From Elusimicrobiota bacterium (GTDB taxonomy: Bacteria > Elusimicrobiota > Elusimicrobia > 2-02-FULL-39-32): a stretch of DNA of 64,000 nucleotides. The translations under genes and the position numbers were made by a program. Below the pieces are notes generated by a model, which was not told the origin of the DNA, searched no databases, and was given only the letters and a program-made list of their open reading frames with translations. This document shows, piece by piece, positions 1 to 43,594 of this stretch. The DNA lies in the NCBI GenBank assembly GCA_021730935.1, contig JAKFYJ010000010.1:6500-70499 (forward strand), written 5' to 3'. How positions within the stretch are numbered: position 1 is the first letter of the stretch; the number at the start of each line of letters is the position of its first letter.

Positions 1-3000
1 TCCACCGTCGGGCAAATATCCCAGGTCTATGGCGTTATCAACGGGCAGGCCAAACTTCTCTCATCGAGAACGGCTTCAATTCAAAATGAAGTTCCGACCG
101 TCCGCCAAACTTTCACCGCGCCTCAGCCGGCGGCTCAGACTCAAACCCAGCCTCAGGTTCAGACCCAGTCTCTCGCGCCCGTGACCGCGCCTGCTTCCGA
201 ACAAACTGTCGATCTGGACGCTTCAGGAAACCTGACCGGAGCTTCTTTCACAGTCGGCGGAGTTCAATATCTCCTCGGGAGCGACGCGAACGGAAACCTG
301 ACGGTGAAATATCAGGATGCGAACGGCGAATGGCTTGACGGCTCTGCCTCCTTCGACGATTCCAATGGGCTCACGACGATCTCAATTGAAATGGGGGGAG
401 CCCTCTCTGTCCTGGCCACGCTCAACCAATCCACCAAAGAACTGATTTTCTCTCAGACAGGCGAAACATGGACGCTTGAGAATGAAGCCGCAATGGGGAG
501 CGTCCAAAATCAGGATGTCACCGTCACCTATGTTTATGATTCCAAGGGCCGCCTGACAGCCGCTCACGGAACCGGAAGTTTCGTGGGAGACGACGGTTTC
601 GGAAACCAGACTTCCGGCAGAATCAGCCAGTCGTATCTCGTCCTCATGGGACAGGCCAAGATCAACCAAAGCGTCACGCTTTCAAACACCGCCAACCTTG
701 ATGGTTCCACCCAGGACCAAAGCATGACCGTCACCTATCGTTATGATTCCAACGGCGCGCTTTTGAACGCCAGCGGACGCGGCACTTTTGTCGCCGTGAA
801 CACGGACGCTTCCGTCACAACCGGCAACATCACTCAGGATTATGTCGTGCTCGACGGCCAGGCCAAACTTTCTTCTTCCAGGACGGATTCCTCCAACAAC
901 TATCCTGATCAGTCCCATCAGGACCAGACCCTGGTCATCGCTTATGAATATGACGGAAGGAACCGCCTGAAAAGCGCCAAGGGCAAAGGGACTTTCACCC
1001 AGAGCGACAAGTTCGGAAACCTCCAGCATGGCGGCATCGCTCAGGACTATGCCGTCCTCATGGGACAGGCCAGGATCTCCAAATCCGTCACCAACACCAC
1101 GGTGGAGAACCTTGACGGGTCCAGTTCCCAGCAGGACCAGACGGTGGAATATATTTATGATTCTTCGGGCCGGGTCCTCGGCGCGACAGGCGCAGGCGTC
1201 TCCGTCTCCAACGACGGATACGGCAACCTCACAACCTCCCGATCCTTCCAAAACTATTCCCTCATTTTAGGCCAGACCAAACTTTCTCAAACCCTCTCTC
1301 ATTCCGAAACCCGAAACCTCGACGGTTCCTCTCAAGTCCAGGACATGATCCAGACCCAGGATTATGATTCCAAGGGCCGATTGATCGGCGCGCACGGCGG
1401 CGGAACCTTCAGCTCCGACGACGGGTTCGGCAACACAACATCGGGGACCCTCAGCCAGATTTATGACATCATCAATTTTCAGGCCAAACTCATGCGGTCC
1501 GTCACAGAATCCAGCACGCTCAACCTGGACGGTTCATCCCAGTCTCAGATCACCACGGTGGATTATGCTTATGACAATCTCGGATTGCTCTCGTCTTCCT
1601 CCGGTTCGGGTTCTTTCAGCTCGAACGACGGCTATGACAATCTTACAAGCGGAACCATAACCCAGACCTATTCAGTCATCCAGGGCCAGGCCAAACTCTC
1701 GGCATCCGAAACCCTTTCTAACACCGCAAACCGGGACGGGTCCACTCAAACCCAAACAGTCACCGTGGCCTATGGCTATGACGCCAACGGCAAACTGACA
1801 TCCGCGGGGGGGACCGGAACATTTTCTTCCAACGACGGATTCAACAACGTCACCGCCGGCACCCTCACCCAGATTTACAGCATCGTCAACGGACAGGCCA
1901 AGATGGGAACTTCCGCCACGGTCTCGGACACGCGCAACCTCGACGGATCCACTCAGCATCAGAGCGTCACAGTCGCCTATGTTTATGATTCCCTGGGCCG
2001 CGTCCTCTCCGCTTCCGGTCAGGGCTCGTTCAATTCCGACGACGGCTATGGAAACCTCACCAACGGAACCATCGCTCAGACTTATGCCGTCGTGAACGGC
2101 CAGGCGAAACTTTCCGCTTCAGAAACGGTTTCGCGCACCCTGAACCTCGACGGCTCCACGCAAGACCAGACCGTCATCGTTTCCTATGCGTATGACCGCT
2201 TCGGAAAAATCCTCTCCGCCTCCGGCATCGGAACATTTTCATCCAACGACGGTTACGGCAACCTGACCTCCGGCAACATCGAACAGTCCTATGTCATCTT
2301 AAACGGTCAGGCCAAACTCTCTTCTTCAAAAACCGTTTCGGACACGCTCAACCTCGACGGCTCCACTCAGCGCCAGACCGTGACGGTTGATTATGGTTAT
2401 GACGCCGACGGCTTCTTCCTCGCTTCCGCGCTCGGCAAAGGTTTGTTCAGCTCCAACGATGGTTTCGGCAACCTCACCTCCGGCAGCATCGACCAAAAAT
2501 ATTCCATCATCCGCGGCCAGGCCAAACTGGATGCCTCGGAAACCGTTTCCCGCACCGCCAACCTTGACGGTTCCACGCAAGACCAGACTGTGACGGTTTC
2601 CTATGCGTATGACAGCGTCGGAAAAATCATCTCCGCCTCCGGTTCCGGAACATTTTCATCCAACGACGGGTTCGGAAACCTCACCTCCGGGAACATCCAT
2701 CAGACTTATGCCGTCGTGAACGGCCAGGCCAAAATCGCCTCGTCGCAAACGGCATCCCAAACGCAGAACCTGGACGGGTCCACCCAGGACCAAACCGTCA
2801 CCGTCGCTTATTCTTATGACCCTCTGAACGGCAAACTCCTTTCCGCTGACGGCTCAGGCGTTTTCAATTCCAACGACGGATACAACAATCTCACGTCCGG
2901 AACCATCAATCAAACCTATGCCGTCGTGAACGGCCAGGCCAAACTTTCCGCTTCAGAAACGGTTTCGCGCACCCTGAACCTCGACGGATCCACTCAGGAC

Positions 3001-6000
3001 CAAACGGTCACGGTTTCCTATGCCTATGACGCGGCGGGCAAAATCATCTCCGCGGACGGCAGAGGGACTTTCAATTCCGACGACGGTTATGGCAACCTCA
3101 CTTCCGGCAGCATCGCGCAGTCTTATGTCATCGTGAACGGTCAGGCCAAACTTTCCTCCTCTGTGACGGTTTCTCACTCCGACAACCTTGACGATTCCAC
3201 GCAGGATCAGACCGTCACGGTTTCTTATGCTTATGATTCCGTCGGCAAAATCGTTTCAGCGTCCGGGGCCGGAACATTTTCCTCCAATGACGGATTTGGC
3301 AACCTCACTTCGGGAAAAATATCCCAGTCTTATGTCATCGTGAACGGACAGGCGAAACTGGCCTCTTCCGAAACGATTTCCGACACGGCGAACTTGGACG
3401 GCTCCACCCAAAATCAGCGGATGCTGGTCAATTATGCTTATGATTCCGTCGGCAAAATCATCTCAGCGTCCGGGACAGGAACCTTCGGATCCGACGATGG
3501 CTTCGGCAACCTCACTTCCGGCCGCCTCACGCAGTCTTATGTCATCCTGAACGGCCAGGCGAAACTTTCTTCGTCTGTCACAGATTCCAGCACGGTCAAC
3601 CGGGACGGGTCCACCCAGCATCAGCTCATGACGGTCTCTTATTCTTATGATCCCAGGACCTTCAAACCCGCTTCAACCACAGGCAAAGGCGTCTTCGATT
3701 CCAATGATGGATACGGAAACCTCACAACCGGAGACATCGAGCAGACTTATGTCCTCATCAACGGCCAGTCCAAACTCGCGTCATCCATCACGGCGTCTCA
3801 CACTCAAAATCTCGACGATTCCGTTCAGGACCAGACTGTCACCGTTTCTTATGCTTATGACAATGTCGGCCGCCTCACCCGCGCTTCGGGCGCCGGAACC
3901 TTCAATTCCAACGACGGCAACGGCAACCTCACCGCCGGAGACATCCTTCAAACCTATGACATCATCCGAGGCCAGGCGAAACTGGTCTCATCCCAAACTG
4001 ATTCCCACACGCTCAACATCGACGGGTCCACTCAGGACCAGACGGTGACCGTCCGTTACACTTATGATTCCCTCGGCCGTTCTCTGACCGCTTTCGGGCT
4101 CGGCTCCTTCACTTCCAATGACGGATATGGAAACCTGACTTCCGGCACCATCACGCAGACATATGTCAGCATCAACGGCCAGTTCAAACTCGAGTCTTCA
4201 GAAACCGTTTCCGATTCCTCCAACCTTGACGGTTCCACACAGCATCAGAGCGTGCTCGTGGCTTATGTTTATGATTCCGTGGGCCGAATCACCGGCGCCT
4301 CCGGAGCCGGAACCTTCGTTGCAGACGACGGATACGGCAACCTCACGGACGGAAACATCGCCCAGTCTTATTCCGTCATCAACGGACAAGCCAAACTCTC
4401 CTCCTCAAAAACAGATTCCAACATGATCAATCTCGACGGTTCTTCCCAGGTCCAGAGCGTGACCGTGGATTATGCTTATGATTCCGTCGGCCGGCCCTTG
4501 AGCGCGGACGGAAACGGCTCGTTCCGATCCAACGACGGTTTCGGCAACATCACTCTCGGGACCCTGCATCAAACCTATTCCAAAATTGCGGGCCAGTTCA
4601 AAATGACGGCCTCCGAAACAGTTTCAGAAGTCAACAACCTTGACGGATCCGCTCAGCATCAGGCCGTGACCGTGGTTTATGCCTATGACAGCGCGGCCCG
4701 CCTGATTTCCGCAGTCGGAGATGGAACCTTTTCCTCCACCAGCTTCAAAACCCTTTCCCAGGGCACCCTCCACCAGACCTATGACATCATCCTGGGCCAG
4801 GCGCGTCTCTCGGGCACCGACACCCGGACCCTCACGACAGAACCCGTCACACTGATTTCGCAATATGCAGAATCCCAGGGCTCGGCGTCCAATGTCTCGG
4901 CCACGCTCAATTTTGACGCCGCGAAAAACCTGCTCGGCGGAGAAATCCTCAACCTGAACGGACGCAAATGGATCGTGAGCTGGGACGACACGGCCCAGGC
5001 TCTGGTTCTCTCGGTTTTGGACAGCGGCAACAACAAGGTTGCCGGAACCCTTTCCATGCTCTCTGAAACGTCCGGCCTCGCTTCATTCGAATTGATTTCA
5101 GCGGACGGAGAAACCCATTCCGTCACCGTCGACAAACAAAGCGGCCAGGTCGCCTTCAACAATTCTCCCGTCGTCCTTTATACCGCCAACGGCCCCGTCG
5201 TCGTGAGCCCGGACCAGGACCAGTTCGTGACCGTCACCTATAAGCATGACGCCAACGGCAAACTCCTGTCCGCCGAAGGCCGCGGAAACTTCACCATCAA
5301 CGACGGATACGGCAACATCACCGAGGGCCGGATCGAACAGGAATATCTCATCATCAAGGGCCAGGCCAAACTTTGGAAGAACGAAACCAAAACCTGGTCC
5401 GGCGGCGGCCTGCTGGACAGTTTCGGAAACCCCGGATCCAACCAGGACAACAGCATGAACAGCCAGGACCTCACGGTTTATTATGCCTATAATGCCGTGG
5501 GCTCTCTCGTCGCGAGCGGCGGGGTTTTCGGCGGCAAAAACGGGGACGGCGTCACTCAGGGCGAAGGAACGATGTGGAGCGATTCAGGATTCGGCGATGT
5601 CACGCTGGGGAACATCACTCAGACTTATGAAGTCGTCATGGGACAAGCCAAGCTCAAGACCTCCCGGACCGACACGCACACGATGAACGCGGACGGAAGC
5701 CAGACCTGGCAGGACGGGTCCACCCACAACGGCGTCCAGACCCAGGGCATCACGGTCACTTATTCTTATAACGCTTTGGGGCTCATGACGGGAGCGGTCG
5801 CCGACACAGGCGTTTCCATGAGCCGGGACGCTTATGGCAGCTGGACCAAAACCACCACCACGCAGTCCTATATGATGATTTCCAGCATCGGGCAGGCCAA
5901 ACTCAGAGAAACGGCTTCTGTTTCCGAAGGTTTCAACCTTGACGGCTCATCGTCCCGCCAGGAGATGACGGTCACCAACAATTATGACGCCAACGGCTCT

Positions 6001-9000
6001 CTCGTCGCCGCTTCAGGCAAGGGAAATTTCGTTTCCAACGACGGCGCCGGCAACATCACCTCAGGAAAAATCACCCAGGTTTATGTCATCATCGCAGGCC
6101 AGGCGAAACTGTCTTCTTCCCGCACGCTTTCCGATTCGTTCCATCAGGACGCAAACGGCGCTCTCGTTGCCGGCAACGCGGACGGATCTTCCCAAACCCA
6201 GGACCTCACCGTCTCCTATACCTATGATTCCAAAGGACTCCTGACCGGAGCGCACGGAGCCGGAACTTTCAGCAACGAATCCGCTTTCGCCTGGACGGAC
6301 TCTGACGGAGACGGAACGGTGGATTCTCAGGTGAGAGAAGGCCCTGCCTCCAGCGGCACCATTGAACAGATTTATGCGGTCATCAACGGCCAGGCCAGGA
6401 TGATCGAATCCAAAACCATCACTCTCGCAACCGACGCCGCAAGGGCCGCAGGAAGGCCCCAGGCCCAGGCCGAGCTCGACGCCGCGCTTCCCGTTCTCCA
6501 GGCCGCTCAGTCTGAACTGGACGCCGCAAATGCGTCCCGCGATTCCAGCGAACTCACCATGAACAGCGCCGAAACTCTTTATCGCGCGGCCGTCGCCGAG
6601 CTGGAACAGCGGAGAGCCGAATATGACAGCGCCGTCAACGAACATGACGCCGCCGTGACCGCCTATAACATCGCGCTTGCAGAGCTGGATAACGCCGCCC
6701 TGCTCAGAGATGAAGCCGCCCGGCAGGCAGACCTTTCTGATCAGGGGTATCTGGACGCCGTCGCGGCCTATGACGCCGCCGTGGTCGCTTATCAAAATTC
6801 CATCCCGGCCTATGACGCCGCCGTTGCCGCTTATGACGCAGCGATCGCGCCTTATGAAGCCGCCAAGGCGGAACATGAGGTTGCCCTTGCCGCCTATGAT
6901 CAAGCCATCTCTGTTTATGACAACGCTTTGGCCGCTTATGACCGGTCCAACACGGCCTATCGTGACGCGATCAAACAATATACGGACGCCGTGAAAGTCC
7001 GCGACCAGGCCGTGACGGATGCGATCAGGAAACACGACGCGGATTATGCCGCCCAATTGCCCATCCTCCACGCCGCGGAAATTGTCCTCTCGGCCCGTCA
7101 GACAGACCTGGACTGGTCCATCTCGAATCTCAAGAGCCAGCAATCCAATGGAAATTTAAGTTATTCCGACTGCATTAAAATTCTCGAAGATCAAGGCAGG
7201 ATGGATCTTTATTATGCGGCGCAAACCGACGTGAAGGAAGCCAAAGAAACATTGAACAGAATCGACAGCGCGCGCGACGCGAAGATCTCTCAGGCGAACG
7301 CCACACTCTCCACATTCAAACAGGCGATGGACCTTGCCTATGACGACATGCTCTCCAAGCTGTCCGATGTGGACGCATCTCTGACGGTGAAAGACGCGAA
7401 ACATGCTGATTTGACCCAGGCCTATAATTTTATGGTGGCGAAGAAAGCGGTCATGGACCTCGCCTTCGATGTCAAATCAAATGCCTTCACCGTGATGGAT
7501 AACGATTACAATTTCACTCTCAACCGCGCGGCTCTCGTGCAGGTCGCTCTCGAATGGAAAGCCTATACTCCGGCCTATCTCGCCGAGCGGACCCAGATCC
7601 TGACGGATCGGCAGAACGATGTCTCCGCCGCCTCTGGCAGCATGTCCGCAACCGACTCCGCCATGCAGGCCAAACTGGACGCCCTTCAAAGCGCCCAGTC
7701 CGCAGTCGTTCCTGCCCAATCCGCTTTTGCTTCTGCCGCTTCCGCGTTCCAGGCCTCCGCCAGTCTCGCGGACCAGAAACAGCAGGCTTTCGACGCCGCG
7801 CAGGACGATGTGAATGAAAAACGCGCCGTCCTCAATTCCATTCCTCTTTATGCGCCCACCTCCGAACAGAATATATCGGTCAAATACACCTATGATGCCA
7901 AAGGCCTCCTCACAGGCGCTGTGGGAGACGGAACAACCCGGTCCGACGACGGGTTCGGCAATGTTTCCCTGGGAACCATCCATCAGGACTATGCCGTCAT
8001 CCTCGGACAGGCCAGGATCACTGCCAGCAACACCAAGACCTGGTCCGGAACCACTGGATCGGACTTTGCGCATCCCGGAGTGAACCTTGACGGAAGCAAA
8101 AACACCCAGGACACCACGGTTCACTATTCTTATGATTCCGCCACGGGCCGCCTCACGGGAGCCGCAGGAAGCGGTTCCATGTGGAGCGACGACGGATATG
8201 GCGATGTGACCACCGGAATCATCAGCCAAACCTACGGCATTTATAACGGCCAGGCCAGGATGACGGAAACCACCACCGTCTCGGACAGCGCGAATCTGGA
8301 CGGGTCCACCCAGCATCAGTCCGTCACCGTTTCCTATACGCTCGACAGCAAAACAGGCATGGTCACGGGAGCCTCCGGCACAGGCGCCTTTGACGGCAAC
8401 GACGGATCCGGCAACCTCACTTCCGGCACATTGGCGCAGAAATATGTGATCCTTGCCGGGCAGGCCAAAATGAGCCGATCCGTCACCGCGTCCGACACCA
8501 TCAACCTTGACGGAACCACCCAGCATCAGGTCATGACCGTCAACTATAAATATGACCTGAAATCCGGCGCCCTCATCAAAGCGTCCGGTTCGGGAACTTT
8601 CACCTCCAATGATCGTGGGAGCGTGAACGCGGGAACCATAACCCAGGGCTTTGAAATCATCAACGGCCAGGCCCGCATTTTCCGGAACATCACCGTTTCC
8701 GATTCTCTCAACAAAGACAAATCTTCCCAGCATCAGGAAGTCCGCATGATTTATGTCAACGATCAGGCCACGGGCAGACTCGTGAGCGCGTCCGGTTCCG
8801 GAACTTTCAGCGGAGACGACGGGTTCGGAAACAAGAGTTTCGGCAAACTCTCCCAATCTTTCGAAGCCATCAACGGACAGGCCCGCATGACGCAAAACGA
8901 CACGGTCACCGAAACCCGCAATCTGGACGGTTCCGCCCAGCATCAGGAAATGTCCGTGGTTTATGTGAATGATCACTCCACCGGCAAGGCTCTGACCGCG

Positions 9001-12000
9001 GTCGGCATCGGTTCTTTCGTCGGCGACGACGGGCACGGGAGCGTCACCAACGGGAGCATCTCCCAGACTTTTGCGCAGTTCAACGGCCAGCTCAAGATGG
9101 TTCAAAACAACACCCAAACCTGGTCAGGAACGGGGTCTTATGACAATCCCGGAACGAACCCTGACGGAAGCCTCAGCAAGCAGGAAACAATCGTGACCTA
9201 TGCTTATGATTCTTTGGGCGCGCCGATCGGCGTCACGGGACACGGCACCCTTTGGAGCATGGACGCGGGCGGCAATGTGACGAACGGGGAAATCACCCAG
9301 GAATATGCCAATGTGAACGGACAGCACAAAATGATTTCCAGCAACACCCGCACCTGGTCCGGCAACGGCAGTTATGATGCCCCGGGATTGAATGTGAACG
9401 GCAGTCAGAACAGCCAGGACATGACGGTGTATTATGCCTATGACGTCGACGGAAAAGCAGTCGCGTCCGGCGGAGTCTATGGCGGCCTCTCCGGCGACGG
9501 CGTCACTCAGGGCGCGGGTTCCATGTGGAGCAACGACGGAAACAGCAACATCACCACCGGCCAGGTCCGCCAGGTCTACAGCGTTGTGAACGGCCAGCTC
9601 AAAATGCTGGACTCCATATCCGCCACCCACACTGACAACGCCAGCGGTTCCTCATCTGAACAGACCGTCACCGTGACTTATGCCTATGATTCTCTCGGGC
9701 GGCTGACAGGCGCAAGCGGCGCGGGGACCTCGGCGTCCTTCAATGACGCGGGCAGGAAAACTTCCGAAGGAACCATCAGCCAGGTTTATCTCCTCATCAC
9801 CGGCGAAGCCAAACTCGTTTCACAGACTTCCGTGAACTCCCAGATTCAGGCCGATCCCGCGCTCCAGAATGTCGTGACCCAGACGCAAACCACCACGGTC
9901 AAATATTTTTATGATTCCCTGCGCAGGCTCACGGGAGCCGCCGGTTTCGGCTCTGTCCGTTCCGTTGAACTGAACGGCCGCCTGACCACACAGAATTTCG
10001 TTCAGGATTTCTCCATCATTCGAGGCGAAGCCAAGATCACCCTCATCAAAAACGGCGTTTCCATCACCCGCGAATCCGCCACAGCCAATGCCCGCATCGT
10101 GGGCACGGAAACCGAATGGAACCAGTCTTTCACTTATGACGCCAACGGCGTGCTCACGGGCTCAGCCGCTTCCAAAGCCACGGTCCGCACCTCAGAAGAA
10201 TTCGGCACGGGCCTCATGACCGTGAGCTGGACCGACCGGACATTTGCTGTCATCAACGGCGAAGCCAAAGCCAACACCATCTATAACGGATGGACCATGA
10301 CTTTCAACCTCTCCGGCGCCATCGTCGGCAAAGAAACCGCCTGGATGCAGGCGTTCATCTATAACACCGTCGGGCGTTTGCTCCATGTCGACACCACCCT
10401 TTCAGATCAGACTTCCATTGACCAGGACTCCACCTCAATCACGAGACACACCGTTCAGAGGATTTTCGGCGTGGTTGCGGGAGAGGCCAGGCTCCTCGGC
10501 ATGAAAAACGGCGAGTCCGTGACCCTGGACCGATTCAGCAGAGTGGTCGCCAAAGAGTCTTCCTGGACCCAAAACTATATTTATGACGCCTATGGCACGT
10601 TCGTGGGGATTGATGCGGAAGATTCCGTTCAGACTTCCATCGATCCTGATTCCCTGAGCGTGACTGAGCACAGCATCTCAAGAAGTTTCGATATCAAAAA
10701 CGGCGAGGCCAAGCTCCGGAGCATCACCAACGGCGCGTCCGTCACCAAATCGCGATATGGCAATGTCGTCAGCGAAGAAACTTCCTGGACCCAGACTTTT
10801 GCCTATGACAGCGAAGGCAACCTTTCAGGCGTCACAGCGACAGAATCCGTTCAGACCGGCATCGACAACAACGGACTCACCACATCTCACACGGTTCAGC
10901 GCACTTTTGATGTCATCAAAAACGAAGCCAAGCTGACGCGCATCGACAATGGCGATTCCGAGACGAAAGACGATTTCGGACGCATCGTCGGAACCGAAAG
11001 CGCCTGGAGCCAGATTTTCAAGTTCAACAGCAATGGCAAACTCGTTGAAGTGAGCCAGCTCGGAGATTCTGTCCAGACCTCCACGGATCCGGACACCGGA
11101 ACCAAAACAAGCCACACGAGCAGGCGGACATTTGATGTGATCGCGGGAGAAGCCAAACTCTCCTCTGTTGAAAACGGGGAAACCCGCACGGTTGATTCCC
11201 AGGGCCGCCTGACTGCCGTGGAATCCGCCTGGAACCAAACTTTCACTTATGATGCTCTTGGCCAAATGCTCACCGCGTCCTCCTCAAAGTCCACGCGCAC
11301 GTCCACCGATCCAGACACAAACCAGACCGGGACCATGGAAATCAGCCGTGTTTTCACAGTGGTCCACGGAGAATCCAAACTGGCCGCTCTCGAAAACGGC
11401 GAATCCATAACGCGGGACGTGAACGGAAAGATCGTTTCGCAGGAATCCGCCTGGACCCAAATTTTCGCGTATAGCGCTTCCGGAGAACTCGTCGAATCCC
11501 TCGCCTCCGTTTCACACAGCGAGACGACCGACCAAAAGACCGGGCAAGTGACCCGCCGCGATGTCGAGCGGACTTTCGTTATCCTGAACGGCGAAGCCAA
11601 GCTGAACACGGTCAAAACGTCCACCCAAAGCGTCGGCAAGGCCAATGATAAACACTGGGAAGAAGTGACCGTGAAATATGTCTATGATTCCAGAGGCAAG
11701 CTCATCAGCGCGAAAGGCTCGGGGGAATCCATCCAGTTCGGCGGCCAGGTCTGGTCCGTGAAACTGGACCAAAACGGCCAGGTGGTCAAAGACAGCCAGG
11801 GCAAAGATGTCCGGGAACTCGTTGACAATCGCGGCCTCACCACCAGCGTGATCGAGCAGGATTTCGACATCGTGGGCGGCGAAGCCAAGCTCGTCAAAAA
11901 CCGAACCATTGCCACTTCACGGAGTTCCGACGGCATCGGGTCCACCCGGATCGACGACACGTCCATCACTTTCCTTTTTGACCTCAAGACCGGAAAACAG

Positions 12001-15000
12001 ATCGGCCAGAAAGGCATCGGGACCACCAACTCCACAGACGCGTTCGGCAATGTGACCGCAGGCACCGTCGAGCAGGATTTTGTCCGGACCGAAAACGGCG
12101 AATGGAAAATTTCTTCCAACAGGAGCGTCTCCGAGACCGTCAACCTCGACGGATCAAAACAATCCCAGGACATGACCGTTTCTTATACTTATGATTCCAA
12201 GGGCGAACTGATCGGCGCCCACGGAACAGGCACCACGAAGAGCGACGATTACGGCAACATCACCCTCGGGACCACTGACCAGACTTATGAGATCATCAAC
12301 GGCGAAGCCAGGATGGTCAAATCGATTTCTTCCACAAATTCCAAAAACGCGGATTCAACAACCCAGACTTCGGACATGGTCCTCACCTATTCTTATGATT
12401 CCGACGGACGCCTCACAGGGGCGAGCGGAACAGGCACTTCCCGCTCCGACAGCTACGGCAACATCAGCACGAACGATATCCGGCAGACCTTCATCGTCCT
12501 CAACGGCGAATCCAAGATGCTCGAATCTTCTTCCATCTCCGAAACCATAAACACCGATGGGTCCGGCCAGAACCAGACCATGGTCATCAAATATCAATAT
12601 GACAATGCCGGCATGCTCGTCGCGGCCCAGGGAACGGGTTCTTTCACCAGCCATGACCCGGGCGGAACGGGCAGTGCGAGCCGCTTCGGCGCAACCACTT
12701 CCAAGGGGGAAATAAGCCAAATTTACACCGTGAGAAACGGTCAGGCCAAACTCCTGGTGAGCTCCACAAAAACAGAATCGTCCGGCACAAAATCCGAAAT
12801 CAATGTGGGTTATGAGTATGACGACAACGGCGCTCTCACAGGCGCCTTCGGCACCGGTTTCTCCTATGGCGAGAAATCCGCGAGCTACATCGAACAGACC
12901 TATGTCGTGATCCGGGGCCAGGCCCTCATCAAAACTTCCACCACCAACGGTCTCGAGTTCGGCAACGAATCCACCCTCACAGTCACCTATTCCTATAACT
13001 CCAACGGCCAGCTGACCGGAGCCCACGGCCAGGGCACCATTCCCAACGGCACCATCGAACAGTGGTACGACATCCTCCACGGCCAGGCCAAACTCACCCG
13101 CACCCACACGCACATTCAAGCGTCCGGCGTGGATGAAGCCACGATCAAGGAAGATGTCACTGTCGACGGAAAAACTCGGACTATAGAAAAGGTTGTCCGG
13201 AGCGAATATTCCTATGTGATGGACAAAGACGAGAATTATGGTTATGACGCCGGCGGCAGGATGAACGCATTCGATGAGCATGAAGAAACTCAGATGCACT
13301 CGAGTTCCACAGTGCTGAGTCTCCGAATCCACGAAGAAGGCGGAGGTTCAAACTGGACCATCAATCAGGGCGTGCTTGAAGCAGGCGCCATGCTTGGGGG
13401 AACCTATTTGACCGGCGCGGAAATTGAGGCATACAATCAGAACGCCAGAGATTTCGGCGGGGTTGTTTCAAATATTTCCCTCGACGTAAACCGGCATGTT
13501 AATGTTCAATACAGCACGGACCTTTCCGGAACTGTGTCCGTGACGGCATTGGGAAGCGCCGATTCAACGCAGATTTCCAATTGGATCAACATCGCGAAAA
13601 ATCCCGAAAGCCGAGACGCGCTCAACAACACCGTCACAATGAACTCCAGCCTCGGCCTCGTTTCCATGACCGCCATCATCCGCGGATACCAGGTGAGCGC
13701 GTTCATGGGCTCCAACAGCGGCTCAACCCAGGTCCTGAACTCCTTCACGAACCTCTCAACAGGCCGGAGCTTCACAACAGAGGGCGGCGCCGCGGATGCG
13801 GATGTCGATGCCTTCATGACCGGAATCGGAGGCGTCTCCTCCATCAAAGATTTAAATGCCCTCAACTCTCAGGAGAACCGCGCGAGGGGCTTCATTTCTG
13901 CAACGGCCATGTTTGGAGACTTGAGAGTCACCACCTTGTTAGGTGTCGATTCCAGCGGAGTCAGTGAAGTTCAGAACAGCTTCACAGATCCCAAGACAGG
14001 GCGGACCGTTGGCGCCTCTGCGAATGCCGGCATAAGCGATGTCAACCTTTGGCTCACTCAGTCCAGCAAGGTTTCTTCTCCCGAAGCTCTGGACGCTCTG
14101 AACAGCGCGGACAACCGGGCTCTCGGTTTGAGGAGCATTGATGCCTTCATCTCCGGCGTTCATTATGTTTCGGGCATGGACAGGAACGATCAGGGATCGA
14201 TGGCTCCTGCCACCACCGCCACGGACATTGTGACTGGGAAGAGCGTGACAGTTTCCGGAGGAACTCCTTCCGGAGCCATTTCCTCGTTGCTCACTGGCAT
14301 AAACGCCATCACAAACCCAGCTGACCTGGAAAACTTTTTCAACGCCAATCGCGCGTTGGGCCTGATGTCATTCAACACCGTCATCGGCAACCGCGCTTAT
14401 GGCATGTCCATGGGAGCCAATGCTTCCGGCGCGATCGTTCCCGTCCTGCGCATGACGGACACTCTCACCAACAGGAGCGTCACAGGAACGACAAACGCGT
14501 CTCAGTCTGAATTTGAATCATGGATGGATCAGGCCAACCATTCTTCCGAGAGCAGTTTGGGCTCGCTCAACAGTGAAGATAACCGGGCCAAGGGCCTCTT
14601 ATCCGCCACGATCGTTGTCGGCAACCGCCAGATCTCCGTTTTCACAGGCAGAACAGAATCCAACTCCAGCGAAACTCAAACCAATGTCACCGACCTCAAC
14701 ACAGGCCGGAGCATCACTTTCGGAGGGACCGCATCATCGTCCGATATCTCCTCCTGGCTCAAGACTGCCGACAGCGCGTCTTCCAGAGAGCAGTTGAACG
14801 GACTCAACACCTCCGACAACCGCGACAGGGGTTTCCGCTCCGCCTCCATCACGCTGAACGGCATGCGGATCAGCACGGCATATCAGAGAAACGAAACCAC
14901 TGGGGAAATGGACGTCCAAAATGCGATCGTGGACCTCTATTCCGGCCATTCCATTTCGATTTCTGCCGGCGTGAGCGATAAAACCGTCTCGGCGTTTTTC

Positions 15001-27000: not shown

Positions 27001-30000
27001 CGCGTTGTCTCTGATTTCAACCGCACCGCCGGAACCTCCCTGTCTCATGAACAGCTCACTGTTGTCGCCCGTGAATGGATCATGCATTCGAGAGCCGAAC
27101 AATCATTGGGGCTGATGCAAGTGAACGGCAAAACAATTATTGTTTCTCACGAAGTAAGATCGAATTTGGAAACATTCCTGGCCAAGAATTCGCTCAAGTC
27201 ATTCATGGCCCAGGCGAATGCGAACATCGCTGAATTGGCTGATAAAGTGAATGCCCCCAAGGCAATGGGGACCCGAATTGATGTGGGTGGAGAGAAATTT
27301 AAAGTAACGCAGGCGTTGCACGACGCTGTAAACATTGAATATAACGTCCAATATTCTAAAGCAGAGCAATCGATGAGCGCAAAACAAGCCTCACGCGAGC
27401 ATCTTGACCCGGTGATGGCCAGAGCCTCGGAACAACACAAAAGCCGGCTGGAGGCTCTGCGCGGCGTGCAGAGTGATTTAATTTTAGAAAAAGCTGTGCT
27501 CAGCCCAAATGACAAGAAACATGAATATCTGGCCATTCGAATGAAGTTGGTTGCCACGCAAATTGAAGGTCTTGAAAGAGGAAAAGATGTTTCAGTAAAA
27601 CTGGCATCGCTGGATGAAAAACTGAAAGCGACGGAATATCAAAAAGAAATAAACGCGAAATCACTAGCCGAAATTTCAGCCGATGACATTGGGGACTTCA
27701 TGAAAGGGGAAGGGCACGATGAAGCGATCGGGAGAACGCATGTGACCCGCGAAAACGCGAAAATTGATGTCCAAAATATAGTCGCAAGCAACAAAACGGA
27801 ACTTCAAAAGGCCTCAGACGGATTGTCCGCGAGAATTTTGGAGTTTGCTGGAAACGCGCGCCCGGAAAACTTTGTTAGCCTCGTGAGCGATTTGGGGAAA
27901 GCCGTCAACATCGATGCGCAATTGAGAACAAACCTGTTTAACGCCATGGACAGCCTTTGCGGCTCTTGCTCAATCATGAGCGCGTTTCAGTCAGGAAGCG
28001 AAACCGGAATCGTTGAGGCCGTTCGGCGCATACCCGGGGCACAGGTCAGAGACATCAAACCATGGGAAGCCAACAATTTGACCGGGGAAAAATCAAAAAT
28101 TCTGGATGCCATGAGAAAGCGCGGAGTTCTTGACAGGAAAAGCCTCAGTGACGCGCGATTTGGGGGAATGACGGACGCAACCCCGCTTTTCGGCAAATCA
28201 AGGTATGCTTCGAGATTGGAAAACGGCGAGGGTATTTTACGGCATTTAAAACGCGGGGACACGCTCAGGCACGCCAGCGGCGAAAGATTCTTTGCCGTTG
28301 ACGAGAAGACTCTGATCAGGCTGGAGGAAGGCCAGGAACCCGCCTTGGAGTATGGAAAAACATCGAACAAGCCTGAAATTGTTTTTCGAGACAGCAAGCA
28401 GAATAAATGGCAGTTTGACGGATCGCGTTGGGTAAAGCTGGATGCGAAAGGCAACCTGACTGCAAAAACAAAAGAGGTTGTGCAGAAATTGCGTGAATCC
28501 GATTTTGATTCGGAAGAAGTCAAGATCTTTGCCTCAGAATCTGTTGTGCTTTCCAAACGCTTGGTGGAGAAATATTCTGGAAAGGTTTTCGAAATATTCA
28601 GCAACCTTTCGGAAAGAGATGTCCTTGCCAAAGATGGTTCCCGTGTGTCTCCTTTTGACGAGAACCTGTCGTTATACGCCATTGTTGCTCAAGAACAAAT
28701 TATGCATCGAGCAACGGAACCGAAATACCAATTCAGCCCAACTCAAGTCGCGTTCGAGGTTATGTTTGCTCGGTCCATGATCCTGGGTTATCTGGAAGCC
28801 AAGGACCGCCCTCTGGCTTTAGGCGCGGCTATGGCCGCTGGGAAACAGGAAGGATCTTTAGTGGGGTTTGTTTCCGCTTATCGGTTTCTTAAGTCACGAG
28901 TGGGAACTGCCGGCACTAAACCCATCCGATTTGCGTTTAAAACTAAAAATGGCAATCTCGTAAACCAGGTTATGAATTCAACCTATGGGCGCGCTTTCGT
29001 TGCGGATAAGGGACTTGATTTCGGAATGAGGAAAGTTCATGGAAAAATGTCCGGCACGGACATCAAGAATGCGCGTTTTTCTGGAATTGATGTGATGGAG
29101 TTCAAAACTGTCCAGGAGCTCATGCTTGAAGACGAATCCATCTTCGTAAAGACATATGATGGAAGTTTTGACGATGAAGTGCATGCTGAACTCGCCGCAA
29201 ACCCCATGAGGCGCGGTTCTTCGATGAATGGGTTTACGAAACGCGGTTCAGCGCTGAGATTTTTGAACCTGTCGGCTATCTTTGACACCAGAAGTCAGCG
29301 TCAATATTTTAATGAGGTCATTTTGCCGACAGAAGCTGTTTTTGACAGAGTCGTTGATGTCTTCAGGGAAAATGGAACGCTCCGCAGAGAATACAACTCA
29401 ATGGACAGCGCAATTGATGTTATTCCTGCTTTAAACTCAGGAACAGTTGTGGCCACTGAGCGCGGACATTTTGAAATCAGAGGCGATGTTTTGACGAAGA
29501 TGTATGACGACATGACAAAGAGCGGAGAATTAAGAGGGATGGGCCGCCCGGAGTTTGATGAGACGGCTAAACTTGCTGTTTCAGCGATCATGATGCGGAA
29601 AAACAAAGATTATTTCACGAGAGTTGAGAATGGAATGATGAAATATGATGTTGGGGACAGCGACGGAAACATCATGCCTGAAACCGTTTTCAGCGAAGGA
29701 AAATTGGCCGCGTGCGTGCTGATGAAGGAAATCAAGCTTGGTAAGGGTGAAGATTCACTGAGAAAACTTGATTTTGATACCGATTTTAAATATGTCGAAA
29801 GTCTCGGCAATGTCTTGGATCAGGCAGAGCCCAGACAAATGGACATGATCAGAACCATGAAGGCTTTTGATCCAAAAAAAGCTGTTTATGCGACGGGGAC
29901 AATGGACGGCGTTCGCAAAACATTGGACAGGATGGGTGCGGATATTGTGTGTTTGGACGCCGAAGGCCGATTGGACTTGGGCGTCAGAGAAGACGGCACG

Positions 30001-33000
30001 GAAAGACGGATCGTGATTGCTCTGGATTCTGTCCATAGCGTTGTGGAACAGATATTAATAGCGACTAGAGCAGATCCAAACTTAAGCCAGATCATTATCA
30101 CGGGCGCTGACACAAGCAAGCTGGAAAAAATTGCTTCAAGTTTGAGAGAGGCTTCGGCACTCGGATTTGAAATTATAACTCTGGACTTTTCAAATGGGGA
30201 CGCATCGTCGAGAGAGTTGTCGGAATTAAAAGACCGAATTCAAAGCGAAGCAAAAGGGCCGGGACTGAAAAAGAGAATCGTGATTGCCAAAGGCGTTGCC
30301 GAGGGAAGCAATCTATTAGGCGTAGCCACAAGCGACCGAGCCATGCTGGTGAAGGTGGATGTTTCTCCATTCAACAATGTAATTCAGGCCGCAGGAAGAA
30401 TGAATGACATCGACGGCCGCCGCATGAAGGGAATTTTCAGCCAGACTCTGGATCTGACCACGGTTGCCCGGCATTTAACTTCAGAGGAATTCAGCGAGTT
30501 CAAGAAACTATATGATCAACACGCCATCGCCACAGGTTCGCGGAAGGTTGAACTCGCGGAACAAATGAGTCAATTGGTGGTTGATGCTCAACGGAATTGG
30601 GTGGATGAAATTGATACTCAACAGTCTAAAAAAACAGCCCAGGTTTTATCGGTGAACGACAGAAACACAGGATTCACCATGGATGAAGCTATCAGGCTCG
30701 TTCACGGAGAAGCCATGTCCCAACATGCCCCCGGCTTTGCAAGCTTGCTCGGGGGCAGAGCGCCACCGCTGTCTGCGATTCGACAAACCCTCAGCAATAT
30801 GGGCGTCACGAATATACATGCTTTAGTGAGCTATCTGGACAACAAAGGAGCGCTCTATAGCACGGTCAGAGGAACATCAGACGACGATAGACTGCTTACG
30901 CAGGAAGGTTTCCTGGCTGCGATCCTTTTTGTTAATACCGCGGCCAACATTTGCAACTTGAGTGATGCGGCTCGAAGCAATTTAAACACGGTCCTGCCTA
31001 GTGCTTCCCAGTTCGCTTTTAACAATCAGATCGACTTTTCATCCGCTTTTTCTATCACCTCACTCCTTATCGAGACTGGAGTGATTAATATTATCAACAA
31101 AGACAAGGATTTCAACGCATTGCTCTCCATGTCCAATGCTGTGAATGTGGCCAATGGTCTGGTGACGCCGCAAAATAGAATTGGCGCCGGGGAGCTCCAA
31201 AATTTCTTTGGCTCTTTTGAGCCCCGTTTTAGACTCGCGCAATATGTCACAACTCACGCAAGGTCGGGGCTTTCTCGAAGCGAAAGAGCGCAAGTAAGGT
31301 TATTTTCGAGATTTGCTGAGGTTCAGAAAAATAAGAATGATGCTGACGATTCTTTCAACAGCATTTTTGCTGAGAATCATTTGGCACAGGCCGCATATGA
31401 AAATTTTGGACAGGCAAGTTCCCGCATGGCATCTAGTTGGAAAGATATCGGTAAGAAAAACGGCTTTCTGGCGAAAGCTCAATCTTGGGTTCCGTTCCTC
31501 AAATATGTCGGCAAATTTACAGCATCAATGGGCCGATTTGCTTTATCAGACATCAGAATTTTATTTACATTGGTCAGGCAGGGGTGGGCCAATTCCCGAA
31601 TGAACCGACTTGAAAACAACACACGCCTGAACGCCTTGGGCAATGACCCAGGCTCTGCGCGGGCTGTCATCTCGTTGCTTTCGCCTGAAACCACGGGTCT
31701 GCCCGGAGCCGACAACATGCTCGCAAACGCGGGTGTGAGGAGGGAACACGCCAGGCGGTCATTCAATGCCGAAACGAGCCGCACGACTGTCAAGCAGTTC
31801 GCAGAGGCGGCCAGGTCTTCCAATCCTGACGACTGGCAGTTCAGGCCGACCTCCCGGCTTGTGACTGTTGCGCAACATTCTTTCACGGGCGCAATGGCTC
31901 TGGCGTTTGCCCTTTCCTGGTTCTTCCCGCCTGTCTCCGCGGCGGCGGCTGTTTGGGCCGGAGGCGCCGTCTCTGTTCTTCCCTTCGGTTCTGCGATCGC
32001 GGGCCTTGCCGGCTCCGTTTCTCCTGTTGCTGTCTGGACGATCACTGCCGCAAAGGCGATTTTGGCTTTCGGATACGGCGTGAAATCCAGCAAGGCGCCT
32101 GATGCAGACGCAAATACCCCGGGTAACTCAAAAGTGCCGAAGTTTATGGCGAACATGGGCGGGAAAATGGGGGCCGTAAGCTTCATTCAGGCGCCAATGA
32201 TGGCAAATATGTTGGGAGGCGGAATTTTCGGTACGGTTGCGGCAATGGCCGGGGCATTCGTCGGCGGAAAATTGAACCAGGATTCCAAAATCCGAACAAC
32301 CTTCGGCGCGGTCGGCGCAATCGCCATGATCTTTATGGCCGTCAACTTGTTGCCCTCAGTGGCCAGCGCGGCTCCGGCGGCGTCCAGCATTTTGCCGAGC
32401 TTTGGAGTCCATCCGTCCGCCGCGTTGCCTGTTGGACTTCTCACACTTTTCTCTTCCGCCTGGGCGCCCATCTCTGCGGCAGGCGCATATGTTGCCCATT
32501 CATCCGTTTTCGTGACTTATCTGAAACCGGCCGGAGCTTTCCTCATGGCCATGGGCATCATGGGAAGCGGGGCTCACGGTTTGTCTTCGAGCGCGTTTGA
32601 AGGAGCCGTTTCATTGATTGACCGCGCCACGAGCAATCCCAGGACCGTTGCCAAGAAAAATCTCGACAAACAGCTCAAAAAAGCCGCGGAACGGGCGCGG
32701 GTCAAGGCGGTGAAAGAGCGGATGGACGGCAGACGCTCAGAAGAAGAGATCCGCGAAGAAGTGGACAAAGAAAACATCAAGGGAGAACTCACCGTGGCAG
32801 ACTTGGACGCCATTGTTGAATCCATCGCCTCATGGTTCGGCAATGACCGTGAAGAAGCGGCAAGGTTTGTTCTCGCGGTTTATAACAATCCCAATTGGAA
32901 TCAGACTCAAGTCTCCAACCTCGCGGGAGCCGCTCTCACCGCGGACCGCCTCAGGAAAGATTTGAAAGACAAGACGGGCCAAGAGAAAGCAAAAATTGAA

Positions 33001-39000: not shown

Positions 39001-42000
39001 GCTTTGCTTGAGCATCCGGCCGCCCTGGACCTCGCCGCTCGGAGCATAAAGGCGCAGGAGTTTATATTCCAGGATCTCGTGACTCGCGAGGGGACTGCTT
39101 TGACATCCGAACTTTCGAGACTCGACAGAGACCGTGAACGCTTCATGCGCGGCGAAGAAATGGCCGAACTTGAAACAATGATAAAAGCCAACACAATTCA
39201 AACCGTGCAAGCAAGCCGAATTCAGCGGGGTCTAGATAAAGCTCGGTCTAGAATGGAAGCTGAGGTCAGAGCAAGAGAACTCGTCAGGGAAAATGAGGAT
39301 GCTTTCGCAAAAGCGGATGAACGTGCCGATCTCGTTCAGATTGTTGCCGAGAACACGCGTGAAGTCCAGGGCGCCAGAATTCAACGGGGTGCCGAAAAAG
39401 CCCGTATCAGAAGAGAGGCTGAAGCCAAACGGGCTCAGAAAGAATTGGAACAAACTCGAGAGAGAATAGCGCAAAAACCCCGCTTACGCATCGGATCAGG
39501 GAGAATATCTGTCGAGGTCCAAGGCGGAAAAAATGATGAAAGAATTGGAGAAGTCGGCAAGTCTGAACAACAGGCGGCCCGTTTGGACGGGACAAATGGC
39601 AGGGCAAAGGGCAAAGGTCTCCTCAATTCTGCCGCTGTCCGCCTTGGGGTCCAATGGAACGTTTTCTCCGGGAATGCTCGTTTGCTCTATGGAAACCTTG
39701 CTCATAAACAGCCCGGAGATATTGACATTCAGCCTTATGAAAACAATGGTGAAGACCCCGTCCAGTTCATTGAAGCCGCGCTGAAATATCTTTCAGCAGA
39801 TGCGGCGGAAAAGGTTCGAAAAAGCGCCATTGTGCTCATTGGCTCCGTCAAAGATGTTGCCGGCAAACAGGTTCCTGACGCGATCGTCGAGTTGGCCGCA
39901 GTTTTTGACAGTTTGGCGAGAGAAGGGGGGACGAACAGGGAAGATTTCTTAAAACAACTCAAGGTTCAGGAAAATGCCCCCTATGTTCCGAAAGCCATGC
40001 TGGACGTTTTCCTGGAAAACCTTCAGAACATGAGTCAACTGGGGAGTGAAGAATCGAAACAAGAGGCCAGACAAAGACTGATGCTCGTCCTTAAATGGAT
40101 CGTTTCGGATTATCCGAACTTAAAAGAGAAGGACTTGAAGATCACGAAGACGCTTGCGAAAATAATCCTCGCTCTTTTGCAGGAAGATGAGGATTTTGAA
40201 CAGGATTTCATGCAGTTTGAATTTGCCCGCGAGATTTGGGGAAATGAAGCTGAAAGGCAAAAAATTAAAACGGATATATACGACCCCAAAATAAAAAAAT
40301 ATCTTACGGGTCTATACAATGCATCCTACAAGACTCAATCGTCCGGCAACGGCGCTCAGATTGATTCTGAAGATGCCGCCGCAGATGAATCGTCATTGAC
40401 CATGTATACCGCCTTCGGGAAGACGGGTCAAATTGTGGGATATCAGGCGGCGCGCGCAGGGAGGACCCGCAACACGGTCTATATGACCCTTGGCCTATGG
40501 AACGCTCTCAAAAACAATCCCCTTGCCCTGGCCCAGCTCCTGGCCCATGAGGCGTATCATCTCAGCAACCCTCAGGACCCCGATATCCAGACGGAAGAAG
40601 CCAGCGCTGAATCCATGGAAAAGAAAGTTTTGGAAACTTATATCGCCGTAAACGGCGAAGACAATCTGCCTCCCCAACTCGACCAGCTCCTCCCCCAACT
40701 GACCGAAGTCCGCCAGACTGCCGCTACTGCCGAAAAGCCGGTCAACCCATTGAGGAGAATCCTTACACTGATCACCGGCGGCAGGACGAGTGCTTCCGGC
40801 GCACGCGTGCTGTCCATTGCAGGGTTGACCGCCTCGTCTCTGGGCGTCACCGACCCCAATCTCCACCACGCTTTCAACCTCACCGACTTCTTCTTCAACC
40901 CCACCAACTTGATCGTTCTCGCGGCCCTGGGGATGGCTTATATTACCAAGCCTGGCAAGGGCCCTGCCGACGTCTCTCCATGGGACGCGGTTGTCACAGC
41001 AATCCTTGATTTGGACAGGACCTCAATTTCTCAAGCCATCGTGAGTTTGAGTCAAACTTCTTCAGATGAGGACTTCGCGCGGCAAATTATTGAAATCGGT
41101 CACGGACTTCTTCAGAAAATGGCTGTGACTGATAATCCAGATGAAATCTCCGAAAATGCCGATGGTTTCTTAAACGCATTGTCCAACCATTTGGCTGGAA
41201 ACAGCCCAAGGAAGCGAGTAATCTCGCTCGTCAGAAACGATATAAAAGCAATGCAGGAATTAATGACTGCGCATGCTGATGTGACACATAAGATATTTTT
41301 CGCGCAAAGTTCAAGAGCAAAAAATCTTCTTGTCACGAACGCCGGCTTGCTCAGCGCGGGCAATGTTTTGAGAGGCACCTCGCGGACAGAACTGGAACGT
41401 GTCCATCTTGATCGCAAACTTGTTGCCTCAGGCAATATCGGGGAATACGGCGACGGAATTTATGGCCAAAAAGTTAATTCCGATGACATCAAAGACGGTC
41501 AAATTCTTGCATTGAGGGGCCACGCTTCCGCCTCAGCGCAGGAAACTGAATCAGCCATGATCCTGTTGAGGATCAAGAACGCAAAAACTACTACAAATTC
41601 TCTTTCTTATGCGGCCACACTTGTTGGAAATGTTGACATTCAGGACCTCGAAGTCTTCGATGACTCAGGTTCAGGCCGGTGGGTTTCCGTCGATGATTAT
41701 TTCAAAACACATTCTGGGAACTCCGGCATCATCGCCGGTTTCGGGTTCGGCGCGCTTCAGAGTTTGCCGGCATTTTTGAATGAGGCCCGAAAACATCCTG
41801 GAATCGTGTTTGGGACCGTCTCTGCCGTGATCGGAGCCGCGCTGCTGGGCCAGGGCGTTGCCTTCGCTCCCGCTCTCATTGCCGCCGGCGTCCTTATGGT
41901 TGCCTATTCGTTCATCACCGCGCCGAGTGTGAAAACATCTGATGTTGTCCCGGCGGATCGTCAGGAAATCATGAACGGAGTGCGTTCCCGTGCAGCGGCT

Positions 42001-42984: not shown

Positions 42985-42994
42985 AAATGGAAAT
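42979..42994. repeat. Direct repeat, left copy (CAATAAAAATGGAAAT), includes the TAA stop of gene 1
   Basis: Exact 16-nt match to 43579-43594, exactly 600 nt away. The match extends to 19/20 identities from 42975. Confidence 0.9.
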
Positions 42995-43510: not shown

Positions 43511-43516
43511 GTGCAA

Positions 43517-43545: not shown

Positions 43546-43578
43546 GAGCAGTCCGGCGCTGAACAGGGCTTGAGACAA

Positions 43579-43594
43579 CAATAAAAATGGAAAT
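43579..43594. repeat. Direct repeat, right copy (CAATAAAAATGGAAAT), includes the ATG of the response regulator
   Basis: Exact 16-nt match to 42979-42994. Confidence 0.9.

Follow-up and report, generated by a model that had tools for sequence, protein, structure and literature searches.

Proteins of more than ten thousand residues are very rare in prokaryotes in general, as the sequence-only reading of the locus described here had pointed out, but those of at least 10,000 aa are reported to be frequent in Omnitrophota, Elusimicrobiota and other phyla of the PVC (Planctomycetes-Verrucomicrobia-Chlamydiae) group (10.1101/2023.11.21.568195; 10.64898/2026.06.07.730766). The giant Omnitrophota proteins of West-Roberts et al. 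(2023) contain numerous transmembrane (TM) regions, Rhs-like antiparallel β-helix regions and divergent SecA_DEAD and preprotein-binding domains that lack a wing or scaffold; these authors class proteins of at least 10,000 aa as 'large' and those of at least 30,000 aa as 'giant' (10.1101/2023.11.21.568195), and proteins that reach the lower threshold are said to be frequent in Elusimicrobiota (10.1101/2023.11.21.568195; PMC12057145). Nielsen & Lui (2026) reported thousands of proteins of at least 10,000 aa, with 80% of the clusters formed at 30% identity being singletons, and distinguished a class of 'tandem-repeat scaffold' as well as Pfam-dark members (10.64898/2026.06.07.730766). Chains this long test how far transcription, translation, protein folding and export can go, and no function has been assigned to such giants even in the one cultured organism, Velamenicoccus archaeovorus. 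Here we analyze a stretch of 64,000 nt of the Elusimicrobiota contig JAKFYJ010000010.1 (assembly GCA_021730935.1), hereafter the window, which opens with a stop-free frame of 42,984 nt that we call p1. In our assessment p1 is probably a genuine, 5′-truncated gene, carried by an uncultured bacterium of Elusimicrobia-like (PVC-group) affinity and coding for a multi-pass membrane protein that is very long (at least 14,327 aa). Its architecture, and the working model that we derive from it, match those of the published very long Omnitrophota/PVC proteins, which makes p1 striking, not unprecedented.

The extent of p1 and its position in the window are as follows.

1..42984, + strand: giant open reading frame (ORF) p1, at least 14,327 codons, open at the 5′ edge of the window and ending with TAA at 42982-42984
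1..75, + strand: tail of one more repeat unit, cut by the 5′ edge of the window and recognized from the repeat consensus, with a copy of repeat family D6 at 10-51

A stop scan of all six frames found frame +1 open from nt 1 to this TAA, a run of 14,327 sense codons, and 429-1100 stops in each of the other five frames across the window. The probability of such a run arising by chance at the base composition of the window is ~1e-272, which upholds the original claim of one uninterrupted frame, and the GC content by codon position is coding-like over the entire length of p1. The corresponding entry in the ORF list (181..42984, 14,267 aa) begins at a GTG that is merely the first start codon inside the window, and the frame is already open 5′ of it. 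Because nt 10-75 already encode GQISQVYGVINGQAKLLSSRT, the C-terminal part (last third) of the 69-aa repeat described below, p1 must continue upstream of the window, as had been proposed. Residue numbers of p1 are counted from nt 1 of the window.

The repeats did raise the question of whether the assembly can be trusted. The 207-nt period is real, having been recovered by Tandem Repeats Finder (period 207, 13.5 copies, 67% matches, over 1684-4491) and by a repeat search that gave 19-33 copies at 207/210-nt spacing. However, the DNA copies are only 60-83% identical to each other and no exact repeat anywhere in the window is longer than ~47 nt, and therefore collapse or mis-joining of the array is unlikely even if short reads were used. 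Synonymous codon usage is correlated (r = 0.65-0.95) among all segments of p1 and the neighboring giant gene p2. In addition, an independent Elusimicrobia metagenome-assembled genome (MAG), GCA_016207625.1, contains two consecutive homologous gene fragments, the first of which (P0008) ends and the second of which (P0001) begins at a position matching p1 aa ~9,660, and it also carries a repeat fragment (P0029). A further MAG contig, JACPBF010000008.1, has a repeat-rich frame that is open for at least 5,040 aa. There is a compositional step inside p1: the repeat part (nt 1-18,000) combines a GC content of third codon positions (GC3) of 0.68-0.69 with a strongly negative GC skew, and in nt 18,001-42,984, the unique part, GC3 is 0.53-0.57 and the skew is near zero or positive. 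Because the codon-usage correlation is still ≥0.71 across this step, we do not take it as a sign of a chimera. The small neighboring genes span GC3 values of 0.52-0.73, with the response-regulator gene downstream of p1 at 0.73. Exact-DNA searches of GTDB genomes and JGI metagenomes yielded no contig of the same DNA with which the assembly could be compared.

A YD/Rhs-type repeat region

The first 5,030 residues of p1 consist largely of repeats, arranged in the following blocks.

490..4791, + strand: regular array, 21 copies of a 69-aa YD/Rhs-like unit (aa 164-1597)
5212..6387, + strand: irregular copies of the 69-aa YD-like unit, found with a hidden Markov model (HMM) of the unit (aa 1738-2129)
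6613..7668, + strand: alanine-rich segment with a 14-aa 'AAYDAAV' periodicity (aa ~2205-2556; 42-nt period at 6757-6864; repeat family D12)
7858..13041, + strand: divergent YD-like units including a 74-aa variant (aa 2620-4347; unit HMM and repeat family D11)
13498..15090, + strand: second repeat type of ~78 aa in ~7 copies, unrelated to the YD-like unit and without a family match (aa 4500-5030)

The consensus of the 69-aa unit is GQAKL..S.T.S.T.NLDGSTQ.Q.VTV.Y.YDS.G...SASG.GTF.SNDG.GNLT.G.I.Q.Y...N. An HMM built from 25 units identified 44 YD-type units (69 aa, 207 nt) within aa 1-4,420 and missed the 74-aa variant (D11), so that the total number of copies is at least 44. Pfam RHS_repeat (PF05593) scored 20-41 bits on five tiles of p1, and NCBIfam YD_repeat_2x (TIGR01643) exceeded its cut-off on five tiles. 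The alanine-rich segment that interrupts the arrays is probably α-helical or a coiled coil, judging from its periodic sequence. We also considered, and rejected, the possibility that a single domain occurs in both of the non-repeat inserts (aa 25-165 and ~1,600-1,740).

A query of ten units retrieved 16 relatives at 26-47% identity, nearly all of which are partial proteins on short contigs; nearly all come from groundwater MAGs labeled 'Elusimicrobia bacterium', and one named relative belongs to Chlamydiota. Two of the proteins with these repeats are informative about their cellular location. One (P0020) is a complete protein of 974 aa in an ordinary gene neighborhood, which consists of a signal peptide followed by ~10 units of the p1 type. 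The other is the giant homologue on JACPBF010000008.1, in which an N-terminal signal-peptide-like segment and a 'DRD.SGYM' motif shared with P0020 precede the YD repeats. Because both start with signal peptides, we place the p1 repeats outside the cytoplasm, and we infer that the missing N-terminus of p1 bears a signal peptide too. Together with the RHS_repeat and YD_repeat_2x matches, these relatives bear out the suggestion that the repeats are of an extracellular type. The homologous loci on JACPBF010000008.1, which belongs to the Elusimicrobia MAG NC_groundwater_250, lie at ~6566-21200 (L015) and 1-13612 (L009). On this contig the 5,040-aa frame is followed by an 84-aa ORF and then by a repeat ORF of at least 1,204 aa that starts in mid-repeat and reaches the contig end, which suggests that a frameshift or an assembly error has divided one still larger gene.

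AlphaFold2 modeling of aa 562-1254 (ten units, with real relatives supplied as the alignment) gave a predicted local distance difference test score (pLDDT) of 92.3 and a predicted template modeling score (pTM) of 0.78. In this model the repeats form an uninterrupted antiparallel β-meander with four strands of 12-14 residues in each 69-aa unit and no helices. The predicted structure would fit the regions that West-Roberts et al. called 'antiparallel beta-helix, Rhs-like but novel'. External helices are not predicted in p1. With Rhs proteins, TcB/TcC and teneurins, p1 shares the YD signature (PF05593, TIGR01643) and antiparallel β-hairpins, whereas the fusion of three hairpin-length segments into a regular 69-aa super-repeat with four long strands sets it apart from them.

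A SecA-like module among membrane clusters

Beyond aa 5,030 self-comparison showed nothing repeated, and p1 is unique sequence to its C-terminus. The features recognized in this part are:

17683..17856, + strand: TM cluster 1 (aa 5895-5952), 2-3 helices, the earliest membrane anchor, reached after ~5,900 repeat-rich residues
24313..25383, + strand: TM cluster 2 (aa 8105-8461), ~5 helices by hydropathy
28675..30570, + strand: divergent SecA-like superfamily 2 (SF2) motor (aa 9559-10190), between TM clusters 2 and 3
31858..32562, + strand: TM cluster 3 (aa 10620-10854), ~7 helices by hydropathy
40546..40560, + strand: the sole HExxH, HEAYH (aa 13516-13520; surrounding residues 'LLAHEAYH')
40888..41934, + strand: TM cluster 4 (aa 13630-13978), 3-4 helices by hydropathy
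42184..42231, + strand: JAB/MPN-like motif FHTHPKGNFASQTAQD (aa 14062-14077), without a family match

The module at aa ~9560-10190 contains a Walker A-like AAGKQEG, DDEVH (motif II), ATGTMDG (III), AKGVAEGSNL (V) and QAAGRMNDIDGRR (VI), with an insertion of ~240 aa that bears the stretch 'KDYF..G..KYDV.D..G..MPETVF', resembling the preprotein cross-linking domain (PPXD) of SecA. A word-index homologue search returned no matches either with the module segment or with its alignment, and an exhaustive HMMER search of 1.84 billion representative proteins turned up no more than 8 relatives, which conserve the SF2 motifs. AlphaFold2 produced a model of moderate quality (pLDDT 66.8, pTM 0.54) with a long helix after the second nucleotide-binding domain (NBD2), and the seven best Foldseek matches to it in the PDB are all SecA, with E-values from 1e-11 to 4e-8. 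These include 3jv2_B (E = 1e-11), the SecA-SecY complex 5eul_A and 4uaq, and they precede DinG, UvrB and RIG-I/MDA5, with SecA2 at rank 10; the alignments to SecA span ~650 columns. An hhalign comparison with E. coli SecA was collinear over 454 columns, through Walker A, motif II and the PPXD stretch 'DY..DG...D..G..M'. In its predicted fold the module has in common with SecA a pair of RecA-like domains and, after motif II, a large insertion, which is the NBD1-PPXD-NBD2 architecture seen in both the Foldseek and hhalign alignments. Its motifs also follow the order of those in SecA, from the GEGK-type Walker A of its relatives through DExH/D to the PPXD-like stretch 'DY..DG....D..G..M....F.D.L'. 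It differs from SecA in its identity of only 10-15%, in lacking a Pfam SecA match, in having GKQ in place of GKT, in having no identified wing domain or C-terminal tail, and in being embedded in cis in a giant membrane protein. On the basis of its predicted fold, we conclude that the module is likely a SecA-derived motor that has diverged beyond the reach of current models. The earlier designation of this segment as an ATPase-like module is therefore sustained for the fold, which is SecA-like SF2, and not for ATPase activity, in view of the GKQ in its Walker A motif.

The relatives of the module indicate that it forms a small family. The Elusimicrobia fragment P0001 is 28-37% identical and can be aligned to p1 aa 9657-10563, and P0008, the preceding fragment of the same gene, aligns to aa 9441-9661. 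Further relatives are stand-alone proteins of ~620-890 aa, whose named sources are Campylobacterota, and MAGs of Campylobacteraceae and Desulfurellales contain loci related to them. Common to the stand-alone proteins of full length are GCGEGKQEG, VDEFHA, ASATL, QGLGEGSNI and TQTRYRVGxxGR, and their motor is followed by an RR motif of the twin-arginine translocation (Tat) type, 'RRDFLKT', a TM segment and a conserved C-terminal domain. Two of the module relatives reach Pfam ResIII. The Walker A reads AAGKQ in p1 and GEGKQ in all relatives, so that the lysine is kept and a glutamine stands in place of serine or threonine. Stand-alone loci, for proteins of ~700-900 aa, were found in MAGs and metagenome contigs (L001 1501-4101, L002 648-3248, L005 175-2919, L006, L007, L011 and L012), and the motor genes of L001 and L002 sit among toxin-antitoxin and transposase genes. 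A complete protein of 2,039 aa from a JGI metagenome (P0005, at L013 1109-7228), which has no Pfam domain, carries the module in its middle (aa ~907-1474) and is a member of intermediate size between the stand-alone and giant forms.

A hydropathy scan placed ~17-20 candidate helices in the four hydrophobic clusters, in agreement with the expectation of at least three TM clusters. The several enzyme-like signatures that had been expected as well were not substantiated: what was found is one HExxH and one JAB-like motif, both without statistical support. The HEAYH motif is a possible Zn-protease site, a candidate at the level of the motif only, and P0001 has 'LAHEAAH'; the local match of this region to P0001 had E = 3, and its match to DUF5700 (E = 0.086) was below the cut-off. 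The spacing in the JAB-like motif HTHPKGNFASQTAQD at aa 14062 departs from the canonical HxHx7SxxD, and a motif of similar kind is also present in P0001. Because the tails of P0001 and p1 have no significant similarity beyond aa ~10,560, both assignments stay at the motif level. Scans of all tiles from aa ~4,500 to 14,327 gave no Pfam, NCBIfam (noise only) or PDB sequence match. Pfam searches at E-values up to 10 with the motor, the HExxH and JAB-like regions, the second repeat and the alanine-rich segment returned only noise, phmmer searches of the PDB with the whole of p1 in three pieces returned 0 matches, and tblastn of aa 5,030-8,000 and 10,801-13,800 against plasmid records found none.

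Possible function of p1 and competing readings

We infer that p1 is most likely a cell-surface fiber or adhesin that is anchored in the inner membrane and carries its own SecA-like motor. According to this model, the repeat part would be exported, as the signal peptides on relatives with this repeat suggest, and would form a long β-rich fiber or sheath on the cell surface that may contact other cells or surfaces, while TM cluster 1 would hold the fiber. The TM clusters on either side of the SecA-like module would tether it to the membrane on the cytoplasmic side, where it might help to move the huge extracytoplasmic segments of p1 itself, or else partner proteins, through the inner membrane. 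Further parts of such an apparatus may be the CheY-like regulator and the giant gene p2 with its TolC-like domain. Export by the motor, adhesion or contact by the fiber and the links to the regulator and p2 are all proposed by analogy with the published model.

Several results weigh against this interpretation. The repeat model has no global analogue by Foldseek in the PDB or BFVD (TM-scores ≤0.2), and the shape of the array as a fiber or tube is extrapolated from that model. Pfam SecA_DEAD and SecA_PP_bind (PF07517/PF01043) did not match a 751-aa segment containing the module even at E = 10, a profile of the module family had 0 matches among PDB sequences, the module model is only moderate (pLDDT 66.8, with a TM-score of ~0.4 to SecA), and the hhalign comparison with E. 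coli SecA is not significant alone (Prob ~1%, P = 0.038). Whether the module hydrolyzes ATP is uncertain given the GKQ in every member of the family. The TM calls rest on a simple hydropathy scan, making helix counts and topology approximate, and ~9,000 aa of p1 are without a detectable homologue or domain. The type II/IV secretion genes that have been reported upstream of Omnitrophota giants, and the PilZ and sugar-uptake genes reported downstream of them, are not seen in the window, which covers only the downstream side of p1. Finally, translation of p1 as one chain is a prediction.

In several respects p1 is like the Omnitrophota/PVC giants. It exceeds 10,000 aa, the threshold for 'large' proteins, has many clustered TM segments, a SecA-like motor located far from the N-terminus and beside TM regions, and a predicted long Rhs-like antiparallel β region, consists mostly of nearly unique sequence with no recognizable domain, and has a toxin-antitoxin element in its flank. 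It also departs from them in several respects. Nearly all named relatives of its repeats, and the one relative of its unique part, are labeled Elusimicrobia, not Omnitrophota, and these carriers are the basis for its phylum, as the window contains no marker gene; Pfam scans of its tiles revealed none of the enzyme, HEAT, dockerin and TSP3 domains by which the 'Archaeovorin' and 'Dockerin-type' classes are defined; and its SecA-like module lies below Pfam detection, whereas theirs are recognized by HMMs. Its downstream neighbor is a CheY-like receiver, not PilZ or sugar-uptake genes, and is followed by a second giant with a TolC-like domain. The 14,327 aa inside the window fall short of the 30,000-aa threshold of the 'giant' class, with the start of p1 lying outside the window. 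Particular to p1 are its Elusimicrobia-like affiliation, the regular 69-aa super-repeat, the tandem giant gene with a TolC-like domain, and a SecA-like module that is below HMM detection and has a small stand-alone family outside the PVC group. A second comparison is with the type I-secreted adhesins LapA, SiiE and MpIBP and the 36,805-aa protein of the episymbiont Chlorobium chlorochromatii, which like p1 are very long, repeat-dominated surface proteins of Gram-negative bacteria and are thought to function in attachment. The TolC-like element in p2 is reminiscent of type I-secreted adhesins. However, the Pfam scans found no bacterial immunoglobulin-like (BIg) or RTX repeats and no C-terminal type I secretion signal in p1, and adhesins of the LapA/SiiE type lack internal TM clusters and a SecA-like motor.

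Among the alternatives, the one that survives best is that p1 is a polyprotein from which independent surface, membrane and cytoplasmic proteins are released by cleavage, for which its HExxH or JAB-like sites might be responsible. The HExxH motif recurs in its 'LAHEAxH' context in the Elusimicrobia relative, a JAB-like HxH...S...D motif follows a TM cluster in both proteins, TM clusters separate the modules of p1, and published giants often carry C39 or S8 peptidase domains that have been proposed to process them. In p1, however, neither motif region is significant against any family or between p1 and the relative, and no C39 or S8 domain was detected in the Pfam scans. We therefore consider processing of this kind unlikely, although it is compatible with a membrane-anchored surface protein as the primary product and does not oppose it. 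A bolder proposal, to which we give little credence at present, is that p1 and p2 constitute a self-contained, envelope-spanning machine of an undescribed kind, in which the p1 fiber would be exported in cis by a new family of SecA-derived motors, p2 would provide a TolC-like passage through the outer membrane and the CheY-like protein would exert control. If true, this would represent a new protein-export or cell-contact system and not another long adhesin.

It is very improbable that p1 is a Rhs-type polymorphic toxin, whose YD cocoon would enclose and deliver a C-terminal toxin with the immunity gene located downstream. The RHS_repeat and YD_repeat_2x matches across aa 1-4,500, the canonical-looking YD repeats at aa ~5,560-5,890 and the presence of a toxin-antitoxin pair directly downstream speak for such a reading. 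Nevertheless, of the four features that define these toxins p1 has one, the YD repeats. Pfam and NCBIfam scans of every tile, including the C-terminal 9,000 aa, detected neither the autoproteolytic Rhs-associated core domain nor a toxin domain that would pair with an immunity gene. The cocoon fold is not in evidence either, as no Rhs, Tc or teneurin cocoon chain is among the 50 best PDB matches of Foldseek to the repeat model (best TM-scores 0.1-0.2). Furthermore, the p1 array has several times the length that a cocoon would require, and no Rhs protein resembles p1 in the ~8,400 aa after the repeats, which include the four TM clusters and the SecA-like motor. The MazF/PemK cassette downstream is an ordinary one that is encoded on the opposite strand, has a promoter-like site to itself and is flanked by a direct repeat, which suggests later insertion. 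The least probable reading of all is that the long frame, or at least its repeat part, is a chimera or a collapsed or expanded array, for although the first 13 kb are tandem 207-nt repeats, GC3 changes from 0.68 in nt 1-18,000 to 0.53-0.57 thereafter and homologous genes in short-read MAGs are heavily fragmented, ordinary reads resolve copies as divergent as these, misassembly and sequencing errors break frames and do not make an open one of 14,327 codons, codon usage is correlated across the segments and with the neighbors, one independent MAG keeps the gene order across the junction into the SecA-like module, and another has the open repeat-rich frame of at least 5,040 aa.

Read as a genuine gene for a membrane-anchored surface protein, p1 by itself opens no new category. 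It does indicate that an Elusimicrobia-like lineage also has the published Omnitrophota architecture, here diverged so far that standard models catch only the YD repeats. It also offers targets for further study: a 69-aa β super-repeat that is confidently modeled and has no PDB analogue, a previously unnamed family of SecA-like motors with 8 relatives that could be expressed and assayed, and a tandem pair of giant genes, one of which has a TolC-like domain.

The downstream flank and the giant gene p2

The remainder of the window contains a toxin-antitoxin cassette, a response-regulator gene and the 5′ part of the second giant gene.

42994..43516, - strand: PemK/MazF toxin (115 aa, E = 8e-22) with a 62-aa ORF, lying ten bases after the p1 stop
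43587..43970, + strand: single-domain CheY-like response regulator (127 aa; Pfam Response_reg, E = 2e-19), between p1 and p2
44977..64000, + strand: giant ORF p2, with an ATG at 44977, running off the 3′ end of the window, at least 6,341 aa

The 62-aa ORF overlaps mazF, has no family match and is the presumed antitoxin; for the cassette, the minus strand has a σ70-like promoter match at 43545-43517. On either side of the cassette there is a copy of a 20-nt direct repeat, ACA[G/A]CAATAAAAATGGAAAT, at 42975-42994 and 43575-43594, exactly 600 nt apart. The two copies are identical at 19 of 20 positions, with an exact core of 16 nt, and none would be expected by chance. The first copy holds the stop codon of p1 and the second holds the ATG of the response-regulator gene. 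This repeat looks like a target-site duplication caused by insertion of the cassette, and the junction between p1 and the regulator gene appears to have been only 2 nt wide before mazF was inserted. The CheY-like gene was thus probably once directly downstream of p1. An exact look-up of its product in the public gene-position index gave no entry.

The AT-rich gap after the regulator gene contains three tandem 11-nt units (ACAAAAAGTTT, ACAAAAAGTTT and AGGAAAAGTTT) at 44001-44033, and the ~0.9 kb that precede p2 (44063-44976) contain only ORFs without a family match. The whole interval from 44001 to 44976 may be a regulatory region.

Because p1 and p2 have no sequence similarity, they are not paralogues. 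The first 1,000 aa of p2 have no relatives in GTDB genomes, and the gene downstream of P0001 is not similar to p2. The N-terminus of p2 resembles a signal peptide and is followed by TM clusters at p2 aa ~728-1690. NCBIfam TolC and NodT match p2 weakly, below their cut-offs, and a Pfam OEP (TolC-type) domain was identified ~3,700 aa into the protein, at nt ~56080-56634, in two stretches (E = 1e-10). The presence of an outer-membrane channel domain inside a giant protein that adjoins p1 is unusual.

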